NCBI GenBank assembly: GCA_947627975.1
Contig: CANQYB010000011.1
Span: forward strand, 3,762 to 35,761
Length of the DNA: 32,000 bases
Direction: 5' to 3'
Source of the DNA: an uncultured Bacilli bacterium
GTDB taxonomy: Bacteria; Bacillota_I; Bacilli_A; RF39; UBA660
Positions 1,908 to 25,368 of this stretch are shown here, one piece after another. The notes under the pieces were generated by a model that had not been told where the DNA came from, did not search any database, and worked only from the letters and a program-made list of their open reading frames with translations. The position numbers and the translations under genes are program-made. Every line of letters begins with the position of its first letter. Positions within the stretch are counted from its first letter, which is position 1.

Positions 1908-2258
1908 TTAATTTTTGGGTTTGGAAAAAATAGCACAAATAAAAGAAAAAATAATTGCCGCAGTTATACCTGCTGATGTTGTTTGTAACATATTAGAAAA
2001 TATACCAATTATCCCCTCACTTTTATAACCATAATATGCAGCTTTATAAAGTAAATTTCCAAATGACATAATAGGAACACTAGCTCCGCTTCCAACATAA
2101 TAAGAAATTTTATCATATAAACCAAAAAAACCTAATAAAGCTCCTAAAATGACAAATATAGAAGTAATATGTCCATTTGTAAGATTTAAATTATCAAATA
2201 GTAATTGGGCAATTAAACAAACTAAACCAACAAATAAAAATGAATATATATATGTCAA
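1908..2258 (-). CDS. spoVAE: Stage V sporulation protein AE (SpoVAEb-type, 116 aa membrane protein)
   Basis: Size, hydrophobic profile and the GSGASVPIMSFGN / SEGIIGIF motifs fit. Position after spoVAD with a 4-nt overlap. Confidence 0.85.
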   Translation of the reverse strand: MTYIYSFLFVGLVCLIAQLLFDNLNLTNGHITSIFVILGALLGFFGLYDKISYYVGSGASVPIMSFGNLLYKAAYYGYKSEGIIGIFSNMLQTTSAGITAAIIFSFICAIFSKPKN

Positions 2259-3229
2259 TTTTCCACCTCCAAACTTACTGCATGAGCAATAGATGGAATA
2301 GTATTTTTTTGATTTACCATAACTGGTGTATGTAAAGATCCAGTACCAACAATTAATATTTTTTTATATTTTTTTTGGTTTAAAATTTTACTAAATAAAA
2401 CTAATGGCAATACAGTTGGCCCACTTGCTCCACTTTTTGCTTTTTCATTATTCATATTATATAAAAGAACACCAGCATCATTGTATTTTTTTAAATGAAT
2501 TTTATATTTAATTTCCAATATTTCTTTTAAAATATTTTTTCCACAAGCTCCAAGATCACCCGTCAATATTAAATCATAATAGTCTACACTACGATTTAAA
2601 TCTTTAAGATGTTTTGCAATTGTATTAGCTGCAGCAGGAGCCATTACCCCACCCATATCAAAAACATCTTTAATAGTGGAATTTATAACATTTCCAACTG
2701 TTGCTGATTCAATTTTTATTTTTCCATTCCTAGCTAATAATGCTCCAACAGCTCCTGTTGCAGTAATAGTTGTTCTAATAGGTTTATAAGAGCCATATTC
2801 TATGGGAAATCTAAATTGTTTTTCACTATTTAAATTATGAGATGAAGTTAAAGATATACCATTTTTAATAAAATTATTTTCCAGTAAACTAGCAAGAATT
2901 ATAATATTTTCAACAAAAGTAGCACAAGCTGAATAAGTACCCAAAAAAGGAATATTAAAATACTGCATATTATAATTTGTAAAAGAAATTTGATTTGATA
3001 AATCTCCTCCTACTACTAAATCAATATTGGAATATTTAATTAAATTATTTTTAATTAAATTGTTTAATACTGTATTTTGCATTTTAACTTCTGCTTTTTC
3101 TAATGTTTTACAACCAAAATAGTAATCGTTAAAAACATAATTAAACTTAAAATGATTAGTAAAATCATTTTTATAACACAAAGTATAATAATCATTTAAA
3201 AAAACATTTTTAAATTTAAAACTAGCCAT
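2255..3229 (-). CDS. spoVAD: Stage V sporulation protein AD (thiolase-fold DPA-binding subunit)
   Basis: 324 aa with typical SpoVAD segments (GGDLSNQI, GTYSACATF, ATGAVGALL, MAPAAANTI). Lies between spoVAC and spoVAE. Confidence 0.9.
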   Translation of the reverse strand: MASFKFKNVFLNDYYTLCYKNDFTNHFKFNYVFNDYYFGCKTLEKAEVKMQNTVLNNLIKNNLIKYSNIDLVVGGDLSNQISFTNYNMQYFNIPFLGTYSACATFVENIIILASLLENNFIKNGISLTSSHNLNSEKQFRFPIEYGSYKPIRTTITATGAVGALLARNGKIKIESATVGNVINSTIKDVFDMGGVMAPAAANTIAKHLKDLNRSVDYYDLILTGDLGACGKNILKEILEIKYKIHLKKYNDAGVLLYNMNNEKAKSGASGPTVLPLVLFSKILNQKKYKKILIVGTGSLHTPVMVNQKNTIPSIAHAVSLEVEN

Positions 3230-3704: not shown

Positions 3705-4340
3705 TTATGAATGAATATATTTTTTTAATTTTTGTAATGATTTTTTTTCATATCTTGAGACCATTACTTGAGTAATGTTTAAACTTTTGGCTGTCTCACT
3801 TTGAGTTTTATCTTCAAAATATCTACATTTAATTATATCTTTTTCTATATCTTCAAGCATTTGTAAAGAATCATCAATTAATATTTTATTTTCAATATTA
3901 TCATCTTTATTATATATTTTATCTAAAATTTTAAATTCATCATTTCCTTCAATACTTAAAACTTTCTCAGTTGCCAACATAGCATCATTAATTATTTCTT
4001 CCTCAATATTTAAAAAATGAGATAATTCATTATTTGTAGGTATTTTTCCTAATTTTTGAGATAATAATTCTTTTGCTTTTATTATTTTTTTATAAAGTTT
4101 TAAGTTATTGGAAGAAATCTTAATCGACCGACTATTATTTACAAATTCATACATTTCTCCGTATATCCATGTATATGCATAACTTGAAAATTTTGCATTG
4201 TTTTCTTTTTTATATTTTTTATATGCTTTTAATAAACCAATACACCCTGCTTGATATAAATCATCAAAAGAGGCATTATAAAAACTTGCAGCAATTTTTT
4301 TTATTAGTTTATCATACATTTTAATTAAATTTTCGTTCAT
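3705..4340 (-). CDS. sigF: Group-3 sigma-70 family factor, sporulation sigma-F-like (short, 211 aa)
   Basis: Region 2 (DDLYQAGCIGLLKAYKKY, FSSYAYTWIYGEM) and region 4 (RYFEDKTQSETAKSLNITQVMVSRYEKKSLQKL) resemble SigF. Synteny is STAS gene upstream and spoVA downstream. About 35-40 aa shorter at the N-terminus than Bacillus SigF. Confidence 0.75.
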   Translation of the reverse strand: MNENLIKMYDKLIKKIAASFYNASFDDLYQAGCIGLLKAYKKYKKENNAKFSSYAYTWIYGEMYEFVNNSRSIKISSNNLKLYKKIIKAKELLSQKLGKIPTNNELSHFLNIEEEIINDAMLATEKVLSIEGNDEFKILDKIYNKDDNIENKILIDDSLQMLEDIEKDIIKCRYFEDKTQSETAKSLNITQVMVSRYEKKSLQKLKKYIHS

Positions 4341-8015: not shown

Positions 8016-8792
8016 TTATTTAATTAATCTTTTAACATTTTTAATAGCATTTTTTTCAATACGTGAAACTTGTGCTTGTGAAATATTTAGTTCATCCGCT
8101 ATTTCAGTTTGTGTTTTACCAATTATAAATCTTTCTAATAATACTTGCTTTTCTCTCATTTTTATTTTTTCTAATGCTTTCCTTAAAGATAGTATCAAAT
8201 CTTTATCATATTCTTTATCTTTTTTATCCATTATTTGGTCTACTAAAAAAATTGGATCTCCACCATCATTATAAGTAGGTTCAAAAATACTTAAAGGTTC
8301 CTTTAATGAATCAAGAGCACTAGAAATTTCGTATTCTTCAATATTAAAAAATGAAGCAATTTCGCTATTACTTGGATAAATACCATTAGTTGCTAAATAA
8401 TTGTCCTTATATTCTAAGATTTTATACGCTAAATCTTTTATACTTCTACTAACTCTTAAAGGACTATTATCTCTTACATATCTTTTTATTTCTCCTTTTA
8501 TTAAAGGTACAGCATATGTTGAAAATCTTACTTCATGAGAAAGATCAAAATTTTTTACCGCTTTTGTAAGCCCAATACAGCCCATTTGAAATAAATCATC
8601 TAAATTATATTTTTGATTATTAAATCTTTTTAATATACTTAATACTAGTTTTAAATTTCCCATAACTAATTTTTCTTTGGCCTTTTCATTTCCATTTTGA
8701 TATTCTTTAAATAATTCCACCATTTCTTCATGTTTTAATACTTTTAAATTACTAGTATTAATACCAGTAATATCAACTTTATAATTACTCAA
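8016..8792 (-). CDS. sigG: Sporulation sigma factor sigma-G (TTG start)
   Basis: The N-terminus KVDITGINTSNLKVLKHEEMVELF matches the SigG-specific KVEICGVDTSKLPVLK block. Other matches are FSTYAVPLIKGEIKRYVRDNSPLRVSRS, FEPTYNDGGDPIFLVDQI and GKTQTEIADELNISQAQVSRIEK. An AAAGGAGA RBS lies 8 nt before the TTG at 8792. Confidence 0.85.
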   Translation of the reverse strand: MSNYKVDITGINTSNLKVLKHEEMVELFKEYQNGNEKAKEKLVMGNLKLVLSILKRFNNQKYNLDDLFQMGCIGLTKAVKNFDLSHEVRFSTYAVPLIKGEIKRYVRDNSPLRVSRSIKDLAYKILEYKDNYLATNGIYPSNSEIASFFNIEEYEISSALDSLKEPLSIFEPTYNDGGDPIFLVDQIMDKKDKEYDKDLILSLRKALEKIKMREKQVLLERFIIGKTQTEIADELNISQAQVSRIEKNAIKNVKRLIK

Positions 8793-17661: not shown

Positions 17662-19083
17662 TTATTTTTTTATACCTTTTGATTTTTCTTCATTTGTAAT
17701 ACAAAACAATTTATTTAATTGTTCTTCATTTATATAAATCACTTTGCCACCAGGAGGATTAATTTTTCTATTTCCAAAAACTATCCAAATTGCATTTATA
17801 ACTTTAGTAGGCATATCAGCACATCCATCCGTAAAAATAATTTTGTTTTCTACTCTATTAGAAAAAGCATTAATTGCCACATTAAAATCAGTACCACCTC
17901 GACCAACAAATTTCATTTTTTCAATATCGTTTTTATTTCGAATATCATTAAAACCATAAAATTTAGTGTCAAAACAGCCTACTTTAACTTTAGAACTTTT
18001 TAAAATATTTAAACATTCCATTAAAAAATTTCTTAATAAAATATCATTTATAGAGCCACTTGTATCTAGTAAAATTTCTGTTTCTGGCTCTGGAACATCT
18101 TCAATATAAGGACTAATTATTCCATCTTCTAAAGTAGGATTTTTAAATGACCAATCAATATCAATATTCACAGCTTCTTTTAGTAATCTTGTCCAATCAA
18201 TTAAGGGTTTTGATTTATCTATATTATTTATAGAAAAATATTCACTATTAGTTGTACTACCTGCTTTTGAAAATTGTTCTCTTAATGTTTTTTTTAATTC
18301 TTCCAAACGATCTTTTCTTTCTTTTCGCATTTTATCAAAAACATCTTTTTCTTTCATTTTTCCAAATTTTTCTATTTCTTCATTTATTTTTTCATCTTTT
18401 TCACTATTATCATTTTCCATTTGTTTTAATGCGTCTTTCCAAATTTTGTGCGTATTATTAGCATGTTCATTAGAAAATTTATTTCCCAGTTTTTTCTTGT
18501 CATTTTGATCATTAGAATTTTGAGATTGATTATTTTTTTGGTCATTTGAGTTATTATCTGAATTTTTAGAATTCTCATTTTCATTATCCGAATTTTGCAA
18601 TTGTGAACTACTTTGGTCACTCGATTCATCAGTAGAATTCTGAGAGTTTGAACTATTATCAGATTTTTGTTGATTTTGATCTTCTTGTTTTTCTTTCATA
18701 AGTTTATCGTAAATTTCTTCGGCACTAAACTTACTTGCTTCTGGCATATCAACAACTCCTGGAATAAATGGTAATCCATCTTTTTTTAGTTGAGCATTAA
18801 TAACTGCATCAGTAGCTATATTAAATAATTCATGTTCTTTTCCTTTGCTTCTTTTTATATGATCTAAAGCAATATGACTTATTTCATGTGCAAAACAAAA
18901 AGTTTGTTCATCTTCACTTAAATTATATAAAAATTCTGGATTATAATAAATTCTTTTCCCATCAGTACATAATGGAGCATCCCCTAGTTGATGTGGAATA
19001 AATTTTGTATTTGCTATAATATTACCAAAATCCTTATATTTTACTAATACTCTATTTATTATTTCTTTTTCAAGTGTATTCAT
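17662..19083 (-). CDS. HExxH metallopeptidase-like domain + low-complexity linker + VWA-like domain protein (DUF2201_N/DUF2201 architecture)
   Basis: AHEISH (HExxH) lies at 18874..18888 within CFAHEISHIALDH...NIATDAVIN. A Q/N/S/D-rich linker follows. The C-terminal VWA-like domain has the MIDAS-type ILLDTSGS (18052..18066) and GGTDF. I prefer the ATG at 19083 (AGGTGA RBS). An alternative GTG at 19092 overlaps the upstream stop. Confidence 0.8.
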   Translation of the reverse strand: MNTLEKEIINRVLVKYKDFGNIIANTKFIPHQLGDAPLCTDGKRIYYNPEFLYNLSEDEQTFCFAHEISHIALDHIKRSKGKEHELFNIATDAVINAQLKKDGLPFIPGVVDMPEASKFSAEEIYDKLMKEKQEDQNQQKSDNSSNSQNSTDESSDQSSSQLQNSDNENENSKNSDNNSNDQKNNQSQNSNDQNDKKKLGNKFSNEHANNTHKIWKDALKQMENDNSEKDEKINEEIEKFGKMKEKDVFDKMRKERKDRLEELKKTLREQFSKAGSTTNSEYFSINNIDKSKPLIDWTRLLKEAVNIDIDWSFKNPTLEDGIISPYIEDVPEPETEILLDTSGSINDILLRNFLMECLNILKSSKVKVGCFDTKFYGFNDIRNKNDIEKMKFVGRGGTDFNVAINAFSNRVENKIIFTDGCADMPTKVINAIWIVFGNRKINPPGGKVIYINEEQLNKLFCITNEEKSKGIKK

Positions 19084-19088
19084 GTGTA

Positions 19089-19499
19089 TCACCTAATATG
19101 CGCTACTAAAGAATAAATTTCTTCATTTATTAAATTCTTATCAATTTTCTTACATGTAATAATAATTTGACAATTATTAGGCAAATCTAAAGTTCCAATT
19201 TTATGATATTTTATTATATCCATAAATTTAATTTGTTCTTTAATTGAAATATCAGTTATATTTTCAATAATTAAATAGTTACTAATATCATTTTCTCTCT
19301 TTTTTACATTTAAATACCAACTTGGTGGCATAAAAGTACGATTATTAAAATAACCATTTAAATTACTGAGATCAATATCAGCTTTAATAATTGTACCAAT
19401 ATCTTTAAAAATATTTTCAGGTAAATCTTCAACTAAAATGGGAATTTCTTTAACTTTTAAATATTCGCTGATTAAAGATAATTTATCTTTGTTTATCAT
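19089..19499 (-). CDS. Small P-loop-less AAA+-like protein, paralogous to the core of the upstream ATPase
   Basis: MPPSWYLNV...YLIIENITDISIKEQ...DLPNNCQIIITCKK...IYSLVAHI aligns by eye with APPWYQRLV...ILFLDELTNASLNMQ...ELPKNCRVVAAGNE...LFNRFAHV of the 628-aa ATPase. There is no GxxxxGK[ST] and Walker B DE is replaced by EN. A 4-nt ATGA overlap joins it to the upstream gene. Confidence 0.6.
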   Translation of the reverse strand: MINKDKLSLISEYLKVKEIPILVEDLPENIFKDIGTIIKADIDLSNLNGYFNNRTFMPPSWYLNVKKRENDISNYLIIENITDISIKEQIKFMDIIKYHKIGTLDLPNNCQIIITCKKIDKNLINEEIYSLVAHIR

Positions 19500-21382
19500 A
19501 TTCTTGCTCCTTTCTTTGATTCTGACATTCTAAATTCCGCAATTTTTTCTAATCTTTTTTCATCATCACGACACCACAAAGTATCAAATAAAGCAAGGAA
19601 TTCCGGGTCTAAATTTGCAACAAAGTTTCTAATTATCTTAACATTTTTTTCATCAACAAATGATAATCCAACAACTGTAGCATGTTTTTCACTGATATCC
19701 ATTTCTAAATTAGATTCATTATAATTATTATTTATAACATCTTCTATAGTTATAATTTTTTTACTGCAAAACTCTACAAAATCGCTAGTTAATTCATTTC
19801 CAACTAATGATCTTAACATTTCTGGATTTTTAGTTTTATATAAAATTTTAGAAGCCATTTCCCATTTTCTAGGATCAGCATTTGGTGTTTCACCATTATA
19901 CTCGCTGCGTAAAGCATTTTCTCTTTTATAGGAAATAAAAGCTAAAATTGAAGGATGAATTTTAGGTAGGTTTTCATCTTCCTTATAAGTTAAACTTTTA
20001 TAATCTTTTGCTGGAGTCACAGCCCAATTAAGCCATGATTCAACTGTTGTTTCTATATAAACATGTGCAAAACGATTAAATAAAGGTTCAGCTATTTCAG
20101 ATGCTGCTTTACTATCGTTTATTTCATTTCCAGCAGCTACTACCCTACAATTTTTAGGCAGTTCAAAAAAATCGTTCACTTTACGATCTAATGCAATACT
20201 ATATCCATATTTTTGCATATTTAATGAAGCATTTGTAAGTTCATCTAAAAATAATATATGTATTTTATTAGGCTCTTTTTCACATTTATCAACTAATCTT
20301 TGATACCAAGGCGGAGCAATATATTCAACTTTTTTTTCATCATTATTTTTTAAAGCCATTCCAATTAATAATTCGGGAGATAAAGTTCCTATTGAAACAA
20401 TTTCACAATCAGGATCTATTTGTCTTACTCTAGCACTTTTTCCATCACCTGATTTACCATGGATAAAAACTGCAACTCCACTTTCGACAGATCCTTTAAT
20501 AATATCTTCTTCACTTACCATATCAAATGTAAAATTATAAGGATTTGGTATTTTATAATTCTCTTTATTTTCCAAATTTGTTTTTTTATAAGTATTATTT
20601 AAATTTAAATCTTTAGTAAGATATATATCCATATAATTATACATATTAGTTAATGAAAAATTTCCTGTATAATTACTTACTTGATTAAATTGAACACCTG
20701 CACATATTATGTTCTTACAAACGGCTATATTATCTTTCTTACTGGATAGCCATTTAACTGGTTCATACTTTATCCAAACATAATCTCCATCTTTATAACT
20801 ATTTCCATCAGAAAGTTTAAAATAATCACCATCAAAAGAAGAATTAACTTTAACTCTAACAAAGCTTTCCCCATTATATTCATATCTAATTAATTGTTCT
20901 GGTTTAAAATCTGTATTATAAACATTATATTTTTGAGTATCAATAGTTGGCCCTGGCAAAGTTGAAATACTTAATTTACCTTTTTTAAATAGTCTTTCTA
21001 ATTCTCTTTGATTTTTAGCGACACTTTGAGGATATTCTCCATATTCTATTTCATCATTAATTCCTCTCACTCTGTTCGAGGAGATTCTTGATATTTCTGA
21101 GAACGGTAAAGCTGGGCGACACCCAACATAGCGTAAATAAACATCATACCAGATCTTATCACCATCATCATCAACGACGCGGACATCATTAGATCCATCA
21201 TCAGTTTTAGTCCAATACCATCCAGTTCTATTTTTTAAATGATTTCCTTCATTTGTATAATTATCAGATACATAGCCACCTAAACAAATTGCAAAATCTG
21301 ATATTGCAGCTCTAGTACCATATTTTTCAAATATATCTAAACTATCAACTTGATCCATTTCTAATAAAGTTAATTTACTCAT
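19496..21382 (-). CDS. AAA+ ATPase (MoxR/AAA_5-like core, residues ~300-445) with a ~300-aa N-terminal non-ATPase module and a helical C-terminal domain
   Basis: Walker A HGKSGDGKS (20435..20458), Walker B ILFLDE, sensor-1 VVAAGN and Arg in LFNRF. The lid region carries IHPSILAFI...DPRKWEMAS. The N-module has the WYWTKT...VGCRPAL and YGEYPQ...EPVKWL motifs. Confidence 0.8.
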   Translation of the reverse strand: MSKLTLLEMDQVDSLDIFEKYGTRAAISDFAICLGGYVSDNYTNEGNHLKNRTGWYWTKTDDGSNDVRVVDDDGDKIWYDVYLRYVGCRPALPFSEISRISSNRVRGINDEIEYGEYPQSVAKNQRELERLFKKGKLSISTLPGPTIDTQKYNVYNTDFKPEQLIRYEYNGESFVRVKVNSSFDGDYFKLSDGNSYKDGDYVWIKYEPVKWLSSKKDNIAVCKNIICAGVQFNQVSNYTGNFSLTNMYNYMDIYLTKDLNLNNTYKKTNLENKENYKIPNPYNFTFDMVSEEDIIKGSVESGVAVFIHGKSGDGKSARVRQIDPDCEIVSIGTLSPELLIGMALKNNDEKKVEYIAPPWYQRLVDKCEKEPNKIHILFLDELTNASLNMQKYGYSIALDRKVNDFFELPKNCRVVAAGNEINDSKAASEIAEPLFNRFAHVYIETTVESWLNWAVTPAKDYKSLTYKEDENLPKIHPSILAFISYKRENALRSEYNGETPNADPRKWEMASKILYKTKNPEMLRSLVGNELTSDFVEFCSKKIITIEDVINNNYNESNLEMDISEKHATVVGLSFVDEKNVKIIRNFVANLDPEFLALFDTLWCRDDEKRLEKIAEFRMSESKKGARI

Positions 21383-21396
21383 AACTTATCACCATT

Positions 21397-22153
21397 TTAA
21401 TTATAACATTTAAAAATACTAATACAAATTTTATTATTACTTTTTGTAAAGTAAGGGTAAACTATTTTTTTAAAATTATTTTCTTTAGTAATTTTAATAT
21501 GATTATAAAAAGTATTATTTCTAATATTGATGTATTCTTCATAAACTTTATCTTTATATTTAATTTATTTAAAGTTTTAATATGTTTTTTCATCCTAATT
21601 TTCGATGACGCTCATAATTTCAGTTAAAGTAATATTATAGCCTAAAAAATCAATACCATTGGATACTTTACCAATTTAAGTTTTTTGATTTAACTCTAAA
21701 TTTAAAACATTTTTTAATTTTTGCTGTATTTCTCTTTTACAAAATTGTAAATATTTTTTATACTACAAATTATATATTTTTAACTTTTTTTTATAAATAT
21801 TTCAATATTGTTTAAATAAAATAAAGCAAACCATTGACTACTTTGGTTCCCTAGAGGAAAACCTATTTTCATCTGTTTAGGTTGTTCTTTAATTAATTTT
21901 TTAATAAACCACATTTCATCTTCAGTAAAGTTAATTTTTTTTAATAAATTAATTAAAATTTCATGATTTATACTATTAAAATATTTTTTAATGTTACACT
22001 TTAAAAAATAAATATTATTATTTTTTTGTTTTAAAAATTTTCTTTAATCTTTTTATTCCAAAAGAAGTTCCTTTGTTTTTACGACAAGCAAACATTATCA
22101 TATATTAATTTTTTTCAATTTTATTTTTTAAAACTTAATAAAAAGTTTTTCAA
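21397..22153 (-). pseudogene. Decayed DGR-type reverse transcriptase
   Basis: The longest open stretch reads NNIYFLKCNIKKYFNSINHEILINLLKK...KIGFPLGNQSSQWFALFYLNNIEIFIKK. The LGxxxSQ motif is at 21834..21854. Downstream fragments read REIQQKLKNVLNLELNQKT*IGKVSNGIDFLGYNI (GIDFLGY at 21637..21657, in-frame TAA at 21676..21678). The N-terminal fragment ACRKNKGTSFGIKRLKK is in another frame, with a shift in the run of seven T (A7 on the minus strand) at 22021..22027. About 85 aa of the fingers region and the YxDD box are missing. Confidence 0.7.
21400..21428 (-). promoter_or_regulatory. Candidate extended -10 promoter for the ATPase/VWA operon
   Basis: The minus strand reads TTTGTA-N17-TATAAT with TGT immediately upstream (TGTTATAAT), about 18 nt before the GGTGAT RBS of the ATPase gene. 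It is embedded in the tail of the RT relic. Confidence 0.3.
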
Positions 22154-22187
22154 CTTAATATCCTAACTTTTTTTTTAAATCTTTTAT

Positions 22188-22446
22188 CATCACTTTTTTT
22201 CCATGCTGAAATTAAATTGAATTTTATTATTAGAATTACTTAAACTTATAAAATTTGCTTGCAATAAAAATTCTAAAGTAACTAAACAATAATTTTGCAT
22301 GCGATTAACAAATACTCCCTAAATTTTTTGGGAGATTTTTCTATAATTGCAATAACATATGCTCCTAATTTTTTAACAACTGTTATAAGCATTAAATTAT
22401 TAGAATTAAAAGGTATTTTCGATATTACATCTACATCACTATCAAT
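22188..22446 (-). pseudogene. Decayed Avd-like four-helix-bundle accessory gene (tentative)
   Basis: An open 54-codon stretch ...LMLITVVKKLGAYVIAIIEKSPKKFREYLLIACKIIV* continues after a frameshift as VTLEFLLQANFI.... The pattern (y..i....PKkfr..L...i) resembles Avd and 23S-IVS four-helix-bundle proteins. It lies just upstream of the RT relic, as in avd-RT cassettes. Confidence 0.4.
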
Positions 22447-22666
22447 TTTTTACATCTCTTAATACTTTTTCATAATCTCCAATATATTCAATTTCTTCAG
22501 GAATAATTATTTCCTTAATTAATTTATTTTTTTATAACTATAAGTTTATTATCTTCAATTATTAAATTTTCGTCCATAAAAAGTCCCCTTTTGATGACGC
22601 TTGTTATACAAATTAAATGTTATTTTGTCAAATATAACATAATATAATAAAATAGGAGGCTTGTAC

Positions 22667-23020
22667 ATGAATCCATTTCCCCCAAATATTGATCCACAAA
22701 CTTTTTCTATAACAGCCGTTCTTGTTGGAATAGCCTCTATTGGCGATTATACTGCCAATGAATTAGATTCTATATCTAACTGGCTATTTTTAGTTGCCCA
22801 GTATATAGAAACTGTTTCCGTTCAACAAACATTAATAGAAGGTAGAATGGATAAAAATAACATAAATATTAATAGTAAAAAATATAAATCAGGAGGAAGT
22901 CCATATACAAGTTATCATAATAAAAGTAATCAATATACAAGAGATGAATTAGAATTATTAATTGATGCAGTTTCTAAAATGCAAAGAGAATTAGAAAATT
23001 TAAAAAGAAATAGAAATTAA
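22667..23020 (+). CDS. Hypothetical small protein (hydrophobic N-half, coiled-coil-like C-terminus)
   Basis: An AGGAGG RBS lies 7 nt before the ATG at 22667; the track's TTG at 22661 is too close to the RBS. The family is not recognised with confidence. Confidence 0.55.
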   Translation: MNPFPPNIDPQTFSITAVLVGIASIGDYTANELDSISNWLFLVAQYIETVSVQQTLIEGRMDKNNININSKKYKSGGSPYTSYHNKSNQYTRDELELLIDAVSKMQRELENLKRNRN

Positions 23021-23031
23021 AAAAGGAAGAA

Positions 23032-25368
23032 TTAATCTTCCCAATTCCAATTAATAATTTCATCCATATCAATTCCATTTTCTTTTATATATTCATTATG
23101 TTCAATTAATTTATCTTTACAATATTGAACAACTTCACTTCTTTTATCACCTAACATATCTAAATGTTTTAGAGAAAGTAATACTAAATTAAAACGATCA
23201 ATTTTATTTTTTACTCTCATATCAAATGGCGTAGTTATTGTTCCTTCCTCAATATATCCTCTTACATGTAAATTAGTGTTTATTCTTTTATGAGTAAGTT
23301 GATGAATTAAATCAGGATAACCATGAAAAGCAAAAATAATAGGTTTGTCTTTTGTAAAAATTAAATTATATTCTGTATCTGAAAGTCCATGTGGATGTTC
23401 ATCTTCTGATTGTAATTTCATTAAATCTACAACATTAACAAAGCGAATTTTTAAATTCTTAAAAAAATTCCTTAAAATTTTCGTAGCAGCTAATGCTTCT
23501 AATGTTGGTGTATCTCCAGCACAAGCCATAACTAAATCTGGTTCAGAAAAACTATCATTGCTTGCCCAAGACCAAATACCAATTCCTTGAGTACAATGCT
23601 TAACTGCCTGTTCAATTGACAACCATTGTTTACTCGGATGTTTTGAAGCTGTAATAATATTAATATAGTTTTTAGTATGCATACAATGATCAAAACAAGA
23701 AAGTAAACAATTTGCATCAGGGGGTAAATACATTCGAACTATACTTGCTTTTTTTGATACTAAATGATTCATAAATCCTGGATCTTGATGGGTAAAGCCA
23801 TTATGATCTTGTTGCCAAACATGAGAAGATAAAACATAATTTAATGAAGATATATCAGCTCGCCAAGAAAGTTCGTTACAAATTTTTAACCATTTTGCAT
23901 GTTGAGAAGCCATTGAGTCAACTATTCTTATAAAAGCCTCATAACAATTAAAGAAACCATGTCTACCCGTCAAAATATATCCTTCTAATAATCCTTGACA
24001 AATATGTTCTGAAAGAATTGAATCAATAACTCTACCATCATTACTTAAAAACTCATCATTATCTAAAGTTTTTGTATTCCACTGTCTATTTGTCACTTCA
24101 AAAATATCATTTAATCTATTTGATAATGTTTCATCAGGAGCAAAAATTCTAAAATTTCTTTTTTCTTCATTAAGTTTTACTAAATCTCTAACATAAGAGC
24201 CCAAAACTTTCATATCTTGAGCTATAACTTTTCCCGGTTTAGAAACTAAAACAGCATATTTTTTATAATCAGGAAAAGCTAAATCTTTTAATAATTTTCC
24301 CCCATTGGCGTTTAAATTTGCTGATATTCTTCTACTTTTTTTAGGAATTATACTTAAAATATTATCATTTAATTTACCATTTTCATCAAATAATTCTTCT
24401 GGGCGATAACTTTTTAACCAATCCTCTAATTTTTTTAATGAATTTTCATCTTTAATTTCTAAAGGAACTTGATGTGCTTTAAAAGTTCCCTCAACATCTT
24501 TAGGTCCTGTCCAACCTTTTTTGGTAATTAATATTATCATTGGCCACATGGGTCTTGACATATCATTTTCATCTCTTGCCTTTTTCCAAATATTTTTTAT
24601 ATCTTCTATAACATTATCCATTGTACTTGCCATTATTTTGTGCAAAAATTCAATAGATGAGCCTTCAACAAAATATGGTTTATAACCACATCCTGTAAAA
24701 TAAGAAGTAAGTTCACTTTTACTTATTCTAGAAAAAATAGTTGGATTTGCAATTTTATAACCATTTAAATGCATAATAGGAATTACAGCGCCATCATTTA
24801 CAGGATTAATTATTTTATTAATTTGCAAAGAAGCAGCCAAAGGTCCAGTCTCTGCCTCACCATCTCCTATAACACATGTTGCTATTAAATCTTTGTTATC
24901 TAATACAGCTCCATATGCATGTGCAAGACTATATCCTAATTCTCCACCTTCATTTATTGATCCAGGTGTTTCAGGTGCAGCATGTGATGGTATTCCTCCT
25001 GGAAAAGAAAACTGTTTAAATAATTTTTTCAATCCTTCTTCATCTTGTGTTATGTTAGGATAAATTTCAGAATAAGTTCCTTCTAAATAACTATTTGCCA
25101 CAAAAAAATTGCCACCATGGCCAGGTCCACAAACATAAATCATGTTTAAATCATATTTTTTCACCACTCTATTTAAATGCGCATAAATAAAATTTTGGCC
25201 TGGTACTGTTCCCCAGTGTCCAACTATTTTTTTCTTTATATCACTCATTTGTAATGGCCTTTTTAAAAGAGGATTATCTAGTAAGTAAAGTTGACATGCA
25301 GATAAATAATTTGCAGCTCTAAAATACTGATCTAAATTTTCTAAAATATTTTGATTTTCATTATTCAT
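23032..25368 (-). CDS. xfp: Xylulose-5-phosphate/fructose-6-phosphate phosphoketolase
   Basis: 778 aa with [32 protein letters not shown] and GDGEAETGP, the typical XFP signatures. Confidence 0.95.

Follow-up and report, generated by a model that had tools for sequence, protein, structure and literature searches.

What occupied a stretch of chromosome in which no gene can be called any more, and what does its decay mean for the genes alongside? The question is raised by positions 21397-22577 of a 32,000-nucleotide (nt) stretch of DNA from an uncultured Bacilli bacterium (the whole stretch that was analysed, hereafter the window). An initial annotation, made from the sequence alone, had described these positions as a decayed diversity-generating retroelement (DGR), i.e., the remains of an Avd-like accessory gene and of a reverse transcriptase (RT) gene. 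The results presented here lead to the conclusion that 21437-22575 is very probably a dead chromosomal DGR, once made of an Avd-like gene, a template repeat (TR), a spacer RNA and an RT gene, with its target gene directly downstream. The variable region (VR) of this target is most likely frozen, because the TR, the spacer, the RT N-terminus and the YMDD box are deleted and the remainder is interrupted by frameshifts and a stop codon.

Content of the gene-free stretch

As the initial annotation had it, no open reading frame (ORF) of 60 amino acids (aa) or more is found in 21397-22577; the longest one has 55 aa. The gap of 1279 bp at this place is the largest between ORFs of at least 100 aa anywhere in the window, and the GC content of the ORF-free stretch is 17.7% vs. 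24.2% for the window. Translation of the minus strand gives RT fragments at the places reported before. The fragment NIYFLKCNIKKYF is present and its Asn codon lies at 21993-21995, where the intact homologue P0001 (see below) has Asp (FLKCDIKKYF); the NIYFLKC... fragment corresponds in sequence to the Asp-bearing RT motif. The [I/L]GxxxSQ motif that had been read at 21834-21854 is seen as LGNQSSQ, on the minus strand of the RT relic. DGR RTs are characterized by [I/L/V]GxxxSQ, and group II intron and retron RTs by QGxxxSP.

The joined RT pseudo-translation matches 395 database proteins, the top one being P0001 (75% identity, 94% query coverage, E 3e-94). Among Pfam families, RVT_1 alone is matched (E 0.002, 18 bits). 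Pfam and NCBIfam being too weak to assign an RT clade, the homologue search and synteny were used instead.

Intact relative and map of lesions

P0001 is encoded by a 6.1-kb metagenomic contig (locus L001) that shares 95-98% DNA identity with the window and in which the same cassette is intact. In other words, the intact syntenic copy with TR, VR and target gene, which had been proposed as a check, exists. The order in L001 is: (i) a 206-aa gene; (ii) a gap of 336 nt; (iii) the RT P0001 (342 aa); (iv) genes of 628, 136 and 473 aa. The cassette itself consists of the Avd-like gene, a 77-nt TR, a structured spacer and the 342-aa RT. The 473-aa gene carries DUF2201_N and DUF2201, and the operon of three genes is the counterpart of 19496-21382, 19089-19499 and 17662-19092 in the window. 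The window differs from L001 by 14 indels in total, seven of which are 1-nt deletions and one a 1-nt insertion. The features of the relic, with all lesions defined by comparison with L001, are the following:

22163-22575, minus strand: Avd-like pseudogene, aligned with L001:259-879; 96.8% identity from L001 position 428 on, 5' part diverged
~22452, ~22320, ~22219 and ~22170, minus strand: lesions of the Avd-like gene (-2, -1, -134 and -1 nt, respectively), from the L001 alignment
22134..22135, no strand: junction of a 568-bp deletion (gap at L001 909-1476); TR, spacer and RT codons 1-87 gone
21437-22134, minus strand: DGR RT pseudogene, codons ~88-342 of 342; P0001 88-341 aligns by tblastn with 22134-21442 in three frames
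~22116, minus strand: RT lesion, -1 nt
~22092, minus strand: RT lesion, +1 nt
~22044, minus strand: RT lesion, -14 nt
21993-21995, minus strand: RT Asp>Asn, FLKCD>FLKCN motif (vs. L001/P0001)
~21789, minus strand: RT lesion, -1 nt
~21775, minus strand: RT lesion, -32 nt, YMDD removed
~21764, minus strand: RT lesion, -1 nt
21676-21678, minus strand: RT nonsense change, CAA>TAA
~21621, minus strand: RT lesion, -20 nt
~21562, minus strand: RT lesion, -1 nt
~21446, minus strand: RT lesion, -1 nt

The YMDD box is thus deleted, the motif Asp is replaced by Asn, RT codons 1-87 are gone, and eight further frameshifting indels and one stop codon are present; it is because of these losses that the window is considered to hold a relic and not a working DGR. 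The loss of the YxDD box, now ascribed to the 32-nt deletion, and the in-frame stop at 21676-21678 (TAA in the window, CAA in the intact relative) had been recognized from the beginning. Two other details must be revised. A frameshift had been placed in the A7 run at 22021-22027, but this run is also found in the intact relative, and the real cause is the 14-nt deletion near 22044. As to the «~85-aa deletion» of the RT, codons 1-87 are indeed missing; however, the deletion is not internal, since the same 568 bp also comprised the TR and the TR-RT spacer.

Four more assemblies, obtained independently, reproduce every indel: three are from ENA samples (ERZ27249541, ERZ27249283, ERZ27249530) and the fourth is a Logan run of another study (DRR848907). 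The relic has the same length in all of them, with 0-2 substitutions over 3536 nt, and the encoded target protein is identical. Sequencing error is thus excluded, since these assemblies share the same indels.

The nucleotide identity to L001 is 95.6% for the RT relic (dN/dS 0.32), 96.8% for the Avd-like relic (dN/dS 0.92) and 98.3% for the target gene outside the VR (dN/dS 0.10), and the dN of the RT relic is five times that of the neighbouring gene. The relic thus appears to evolve faster than its neighbours, a result which is supportive only, the counts being small. Judged from the same alignment, the target operon is intact and under purifying selection (dN/dS of 0.10 for the target gene outside the VR). 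The first 430 bp of L001, which hold the upstream gene and the beginning of the avd-like gene, do not resemble any part of the window.

Template repeat and variable region

Mismatches between TR and VR that are limited to adenines are the defining signature of DGRs. In L001, the TR (947-1023, in the gap) and the VR (2495-2571, in the 628-aa gene) are 77 nt long and have 10 mismatches, all at TR adenines. The window has kept the VR, together with a candidate hairpin located downstream of it:

21109-21185, minus strand: VR, target codons 66-91; the 11 mismatches to the TR of L001 all fall on adenines of that TR (P 3.7e-7)
21062-21082, minus strand: candidate target-site hairpin, ~27 nt 3' of the VR; (T)CCTC / GAGG(A) stem, 11-nt loop

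The mismatches of the window VR are found at other positions than those of the VR of L001 itself, and its variable residues are DDDGDKIWYDVYL. The target proteins of the window and of L001 differ by 17 aa, 8 of which fall within aa 71-83. This stretch is also the hypervariable block among 42 members of the target family, and its flanks (ARVV and G(A/C)RPAL) are conserved. The TR is rich in AAY codons. TR and VR have a GC-rich end in common, GTTGGGTGTCGCCCAG, and a fixed mismatch recurs in most of the loci examined (TR CCAGATT vs. VR CCAGCTT); a TR matching the VR of the window would be expected to have the flanks CGCGTCGTT...GGGTGTCGCCCAGATT. No TR-like copy of the VR was found in the 32-kb window, the TR being absent because the 568-bp deletion removed it.

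Adenine-specific TR/VR pairs with the same 77-nt design, in which almost only TR adenines differ, are present in L001, L004, L005, L006, L023, L024, L029 and L031. No pair was obtained with the TR/VR pair finder for L020 and L030, though an RT is present in both. The description of the stretch as a decayed Avd-RT cassette is thus upheld by the TR/VR pair of L001, by those of seven more loci and by the match of the RT to that of phage BPP-1 (see below). It had been suspected, moreover, that the neighbouring genes, or a lost target gene, were once part of a hypermutation locus: the adjoining 628-aa gene is the target (VR at 21109-21185), and it was not lost.

In L005 the DGR has two targets alongside. 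A remote target (L018), on another contig of the same metagenome-assembled genome (MAG), has 9 mismatches to the TR, 9 of them at adenines. Sequence comparison indicates that trans-targeting occurs in this target family, as shown by the L005 TR and L018. It must be noticed that this MAG (L005, JAZQBG010000019; L018, JAZQBG010000008) contains three paralogous MoxR-type targets, all matched by a single TR.

In-frame stops were observed in some TRs: in that of L001, a TAG stands at the place of the TGG (Trp78) of both VRs, and that of L004 (4619-4695) has two TAA. The VR of L004 (6210-6286) holds an in-frame TGA and a TAG, and the target of L030 (7154-9090) is called as ORFs of 111 and 533 aa. 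Since TRs carry in-frame stops, unmutated homing would knock out the target; the stops could thus reflect either an on/off switching driven by the DGR or an artefact of consensus assembly.

The hairpin at 21062-21082 turns up in the DNA folds of several loci. Its covariation over 13 related sequences is 0.526, vs. 0.254 +/- 0.054 for shuffles (0 of 500 reach the observed value) and 0.15-0.30 for slid controls, and the pair types seen are CG/GC, CG/UA and UA/AU/CG. This result is only suggestive of a target-recognition element of the DGR, the stem having 4-5 bp and lying within coding sequence. Compensatory changes between loci include CCAC/GTGG, GCTC/GAGC and CTCT/GGAG. The hairpin is decayed in L007 and L009, which have no RT, and retained in L022, which has none either.

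Affiliation of the reverse transcriptase

The best match of P0001 among solved structures is 8ub7_A (E 4.8e-32); the runner-up is at 4.9e-12 and group II RTs are at about 1e-10 to 1e-11. 8ub7_A is the RT of Bordetella phage BPP-1 (bRT), as it is 100% identical to BPP-1 brt by tblastn. The comparison with bRT that had been recommended thus gave the best solved structure for the intact homologue. In the alignment of the relic with bRT, ACRKNKGT faces ACRPDKGT and IGFPLGNQSSQWFA faces VGIPIGSLTSQLFA. The nearest phage relatives of P0001 include the DGR phages nd12 and VP585 and Faecalibacterium phages; the nd12 RT is 40% identical to P0001 (E 2e-70). The relic has LGNQSSQ, the 75%-identical P0001 has bRT as top match, and its relatives include DGR phages. 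On these sequence grounds, the RT belongs to the DGR clade.

Accessory gene and spacer RNA

The 206-aa Avd-like protein of L001 aligns with 22163-22575 of the window (tblastn E 1e-22); the broken ORF that had been placed at the position of avd is thus homologous to an intact gene. This gene and five orthologues (~193-206 aa, upstream of the TR) match the Pfam family bAvd-like (PF22296) in six cases out of six and over the full model. The best E value is 7.5e-5, L001 reaches 19.9 bits, and all matches are under the curated cut-off of 40 bits. The Avd-like nature of the accessory gene, as read from its sequence, is probable rather than proven.

The spacer between TR and RT (~200 nt) was aligned for L001 (1020-1214) and the equivalents in L004, L005, L006, L020, L023, L024, L029, L030 and L031 (alignment A6). 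It is a conserved structured RNA, for which fifty pairs are predicted, 18 of them with compensatory changes. In particular, TTCACTTT, directly 3' of the TR, is predicted to pair with AAAGTGAA, ~75 nt downstream. The DNA identity of the spacer is 84-94% among loci with RT proteins that are only ~64-67% identical. No Rfam family was found for the TR-RT spacer at the gathering threshold. The pairing may be analogous to the TR:Sp duplex of BPP-1 (bioRxiv 10.1101/2023.10.23.563531). In the window, this structured spacer is wholly deleted.

Target gene and its operon

The genes downstream of the relic are the following:

19496-21382, minus strand: DGR target gene, 628 aa, intact; the gene directly downstream of the RT in L001 (97% protein identity)
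domains of the target, minus strand: variable, aa ~1-100; beta-rich, aa ~110-260; MoxR-like AAA+, aa ~290-628
19089-19499, minus strand: 136-aa gene in the middle of the target operon; no match in Pfam, NCBIfam or PADLOC
17662-19092, minus strand: metallopeptidase-vWA gene, 476 aa; Pfam DUF2201_N (E 9.5e-31) and DUF2201 (VWA-like, E 3.9e-14)

The AlphaFold2 model of the full-length target has a mean pLDDT of 82, and its top Foldseek matches in the PDB are NorQ and CbbQ (MoxR AAA+). Among viral structures (BFVD), the top matches are phage AAA_5/MoxR-like proteins, including those of jumbo Bacillus phages (Bacillus phage G gp566). Searches with the full-length model, in the PDB and in BFVD, are dominated by the AAA+ domain. 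AAA_5 is matched by 25 of 42 family members, and the family shows no variation in Walker A (GxxGxGKS) and Walker B (DE). The target thus has the folds, the domain and the motifs of a MoxR-family AAA+ ATPase.

For the N-terminal domain, DUF6273 is matched by 6 of the 42 family members, at the VR stretch (best E 4.8e-4), and Fib_succ_major by 3 of 42. In the target itself, aa 53-95 match positions 122-168 of the 172 of the DUF6273 profile, a weak match (E ~3e-3). The comparison of the VR domain with the DUF6273 of the nd12 target by hhalign gives E 1.4e-3 and a probability of 17%. The variable domain bears a weak resemblance, in sequence, to DUF6273, which makes a C-type-lectin-like domain a candidate fold.

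The 476-aa protein has the motifs HEISH (HExxH) and DTSGS (DxSxS MIDAS); the latter and DUF2201 (E 3.9e-14) are those of a vWA partner. In every related locus that was checked, the metallopeptidase-vWA gene is retained downstream of the target. The place of the 136-aa gene is taken by one of 133-136 aa in L001, L021, L023, L029 and L030; L031 has two there (159 and 122 aa). By analogy, the operon is probably a ligand-sensing ATPase/vWA-protease module, the specificity of which would be fixed here instead of programmable.

Proposed mechanism and its weighing

In intact relatives, and following the BPP-1 paradigm, the RT and the Avd-like protein would copy the TR-spacer RNA, template adenines would be miscopied at random during reverse transcription, and the cDNA would replace the 77-nt VR (target codons 66-91). 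In this way, ~12-13 residues of the small N-terminal domain would be rewritten. The VR site of the window would probably accept cDNA supplied in trans, judging from its intact VR flanks and from the hairpin candidate.

Several observations weigh against the conclusion of a dead DGR with a frozen, lectin-like sensor: (i) the view is that of 32 kb, and the VR could be serviced by an intact DGR that has a matching TR outside this stretch (cf. L018 and L005); (ii) L001 and L002, both with an intact DGR, encode the same protein, so that an invariant consensus alone is no proof of inactivity; (iii) neither single-sequence nor profile searches of the PDB with the accessory protein found an Avd, and the Avd assignment is under the Pfam cut-off; (iv) the AlphaFold2 model of the isolated aa 1-110 is poor (pLDDT 63) and Foldseek finds nothing below E 0.5 for it in the PDB; (v) DUF6273 is reached by weak sequence matches only (E 5e-4 to 3e-3; hhalign 17%); (vi) PADLOC has no match to the three operon proteins and the accessory protein.

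Alternative explanations

The initial annotation saw in the tail of the element the promoter region of the ATPase/vWA operon. The relic might have been kept because the operon co-opted it as a promoter or 5' regulatory sequence. Two features are relevant here:

21383-21436, minus strand: RT-target intergenic spacer; 53 of 54 bases as in L001; GGTGA ribosome-binding site
21400-21408, minus strand: candidate extended -10, TGTTATAAT; a pattern match, its promoter function being inferred only

A terminator-like hairpin (23024-23042, minus strand; 7-bp stem and T-run) overlaps the end of the upstream xfp (phosphoketolase) gene and is the sole one in 21300-23100. Because this hairpin follows xfp, it can be argued that the operon needs its own promoter, and TGTTATAAT is indeed located just upstream of the start codon, in a spacer conserved at 53 of 54 positions. 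However, TGTTATAAT belongs to the native RT-target spacer, a spacer which intact loci have too, and not to sequence derived from the RT. The TGnTATAAT pattern is not enriched (4 matches in the window vs. 2.45 expected, not significant), promoter-like sites in 21300-23100 are at chance level (18 vs. 16.7 +/- 4.3 in shuffles), and the relic evolves faster than its neighbours. Co-option is thus unlikely.

It might also be that, the local cassette being dead, another DGR, intact and located elsewhere in the genome, goes on diversifying the VR in trans; the target would then be an orphan remote one and would not be frozen. There is a precedent in the MAG where one TR serves three paralogous targets, one of them on another contig (L005, L018), operons without RT are common (L009, L013, L014, L016, L019, L021, L022), and the window has kept both the VR flanks and the candidate hairpin. 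On the contrary, no second RT or TR was found in the 32-kb window, and the VR sequence is identical in the four further independent assemblies, from other samples, in one of which the relic has gained 2 substitutions. A diversification in trans is therefore regarded as quite improbable, and a frozen VR is retained in what follows.

The third possibility is that the relic derives from an RT outside the DGR clade (group II intron maturase, retron or Abi/UG defence RT). The top NCBIfam match of the pseudo-translation is a group II intron RT/maturase model (E 1.5e-6), the top PDB match of the relic is 8bgj_A (E 1.6e-8), slightly above bRT (5.4e-7), and PADLOC RT and DRT models match the intact homologue. 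Yet the scores are far under the family cut-offs (27.6 vs. 300 bits for TIGR04416, 19.8 vs. 235 bits for retron_St85_RT), so that the outcome given by the initial annotation as a refutation, a placement in another RT clade, did not occur. With the intact homologue, bRT leads the structure matches by 20 orders of magnitude, and the motif is LGxxxSQ instead of QGxxxSP. Rfam finds neither group II intron nor retron RNA in the window or in L001, a tRNA being the sole hit. Finally, the RT is flanked by an Avd-like gene with a TR and by a target that bears a VR, with mismatches at adenines only. This origin can hardly be entertained and is refuted by the TR/VR evidence.

An artefact of sequencing or assembly in an AT- and homopolymer-rich region (~18% GC), with an RT intact in the organism, would fit the seven 1-nt deletions and the 1-nt insertion among the 14 indels, but practically no credit is left to it, nor to the restoration of one ORF by read correction that the initial annotation had envisaged: deletions of 568, 134, 32, 20 and 14 nt and a nonsense substitution are beyond homopolymer error, all indels recur in the four further independent assemblies, and the artefact is thus refuted.

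Distribution and genome setting

More than 2600 database proteins fall within the target family at E <=1e-5. Genome matches are found in MAGs of uncultured gut Bacilli, Clostridia and Oscillospiraceae (rabbit, mouse, human, goat), the closest being 79% identical. The whole module (Avd-like, TR, RT, target, small gene(s), DUF2201) was seen at 10 loci, at different chromosomal sites and among housekeeping genes; in L009, L013, L014, L016, L019, L021 and L022, the operon has no RT within 6 kb. In L021/L022:6032-7775, IS605 OrfB (TnpB-like) and RhuM genes fill the upstream position, and no RT relics were found there, so that the decay seen in the window looks rather recent. Only 1 family match was obtained in the 2.9 million contigs of IMG/VR, i.e., the family is essentially cellular. 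A sister strain with an intact DGR was found in samples with adjacent accession numbers; the intact allele is carried by ERZ27249317 and ERR10663744.

The window is chromosomal: rpsL-rpsG-fusA-tuf, infC and rplT are present, and a glmM-like gene and xfp flank the module. A SpoVAD gene (E 5e-94) and two genes of the sigma-70 family are located at 2255-3229, 3705-4340 and 8016-8792 (minus strand). This gene content is consistent with a sporulating Bacillota host, as guessed in the initial annotation, despite a very low GC content (24%) and relatives known from MAGs only.

Two other genes of the window may be mentioned. Between xfp and the relic, 22661-23020 (plus strand) is an ORF of 119 aa with an AGGAGG ribosome-binding site and no family match, which four other assemblies give as a gene of 117 aa. 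The L20 gene (29862-30383, minus strand; 173 aa) encodes a complete L20 followed by a C-terminal Rho_N-like domain (Pfam E 1.6e-11), apparently an unusual fusion.

Significance

To our knowledge, DGR decay is rarely documented. Here the loss of a DGR seems to be caught underway: the retroelement is full of deletions and the target operon, 55 nt off, is intact and constrained. If this is true, the strain of the window is a natural «specificity-frozen» mutant, and the near-identical strain with an intact element would make VR diversity and fitness comparable with and without the diversifier.

Tentatively, and with less than even confidence, the relic may be taken as the sign of a widespread family of chromosomal DGR modules, apparently not described so far, in gut Bacillota that are not reported to be multicellular. 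Such a module, with a hypervariable ligand-binding domain on the N-terminus of a MoxR AAA+ ATPase, a metallopeptidase-vWA partner and a small third protein, could be a programmable intracellular sensor-ATPase-protease, plausibly with an anti-phage or conflict function. The defence role is an analogy only, because no PADLOC model matches the operon proteins. The compact six-part module would be small enough for tests in a heterologous host. Moreover, a family of 628-aa «hypothetical proteins» can now be labelled as DGR targets.

Comparison with known systems

The BPP-1 DGR (bAvd, TR, bRT, target Mtd) belongs to the same RT clade, bRT being the best structure for the intact homologue (E 4.8e-32). 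The common properties are: (i) the [I/L/V]GxxxSQ motif in the RT; (ii) an Avd-like gene upstream of the TR; (iii) TR and VR that differ only at TR adenines, with AAY-rich TR codons; (iv) a structured spacer RNA between TR and RT; (v) a GC-rich 3' end of the VR, with a boundary marked by a fixed TR/VR mismatch. The differences are: (i) BPP-1 is a phage, whereas the element is chromosomal here, in sporulating gut Bacillota; (ii) the order is avd-TR-RT-target, the target being downstream of the RT; (iii) the target carries its VR close to the 5' end (codons 66-91 of 628), not at the C-terminus; (iv) the target is a cytoplasmic-type AAA+ ATPase and not a tail fibre; (v) the element of the window is dead.

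VRs in N-terminal position are reported to be rare, in general (3 of 372, Wu et al. 2018) as among phage DGRs (PMC10743442). A comparable case is that of the «tentaclins» of nd4 and nd12 (PMC10743442), where an N-terminal DUF6273 serves as C-lectin-like DGR target domain in phage nd12 and gut phages. The target gene of nd12, which has its VR in this domain, comes right after the RT gene, and the VR domain of the window aligns weakly with the C-terminal part of the nd12 DUF6273 (hhalign E 1.4e-3). On the contrary, the variable domain has 220 aa in tentaclins and ~100 aa here; the body is an Ig-like and Fn3 receptor-binding protein there, and here a MoxR-like ATPase whose operon includes a metallopeptidase-vWA gene; finally, tentaclins are from gut phages and the present family is essentially cellular (1 match among 2.9 million IMG/VR contigs).

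As regards the ATPase, jumbo phages have a MoxR that forms a pair with a metallopeptidase-vWA protein (PMC7824862). This pair, NorQ-NorD and CbbQ-CbbO have a similar AAA+ fold, and the metallopeptidase-then-vWA order is the same in the partner. However, the MoxR of jumbo phages, NorQ and CbbQ have no DGR-diversified N-terminal domain and no link to an RT. In the literature searched, no description was found of this architecture, a MoxR-like ATPase with an N-terminal variable domain followed by a 136-aa gene and a metallopeptidase-vWA gene; large DGR catalogues may nevertheless contain the family without annotation.

DGR-diversified sensors have been described in MoxR-vWA systems (Kaur et al. 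2020, PMC7159879; Dore et al. 2024, PMC10907252), in which all other domains precede the FGS domain without exception, a «strict syntax» (Kaur et al. 2020, PMC7159879). As in these ternary systems, a DGR-diversified ligand-binding domain, a MoxR AAA+, a vWA protein and a peptidase are brought together, and the same logic is proposed, in which an ATPase/vWA/protease module receives its input from a hypervariable sensor. The two differ in that: (i) ternary systems have their variable FGE/C-lectin domain at the C-terminal end of the vWA component or on that of a separate target, whereas the variable domain here is N-terminal and fused to the ATPase; (ii) the typical third component is VMAP, in place of which an unrelated 136-aa protein without family match is found; (iii) the vWA protein here has an N-terminal Zn-metallopeptidase (DUF2201_N); (iv) the hosts are mostly multicellular cyanobacteria and gammaproteobacteria, vs. 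MAGs of gut Bacillota. The combination of VMAP with a C-terminal FGS on the vWA component is thus not observed, the VR being on the N-terminus of the ATPase: the operon works like VMAP ternary systems in outline and is not a member of them. An N-terminal-variable MoxR with a metallopeptidase-vWA partner would extend to sporulating gut Firmicutes, and to a domain syntax unlike the published ones, the view that ATPase/vWA conflict systems have sensors diversified by DGRs.

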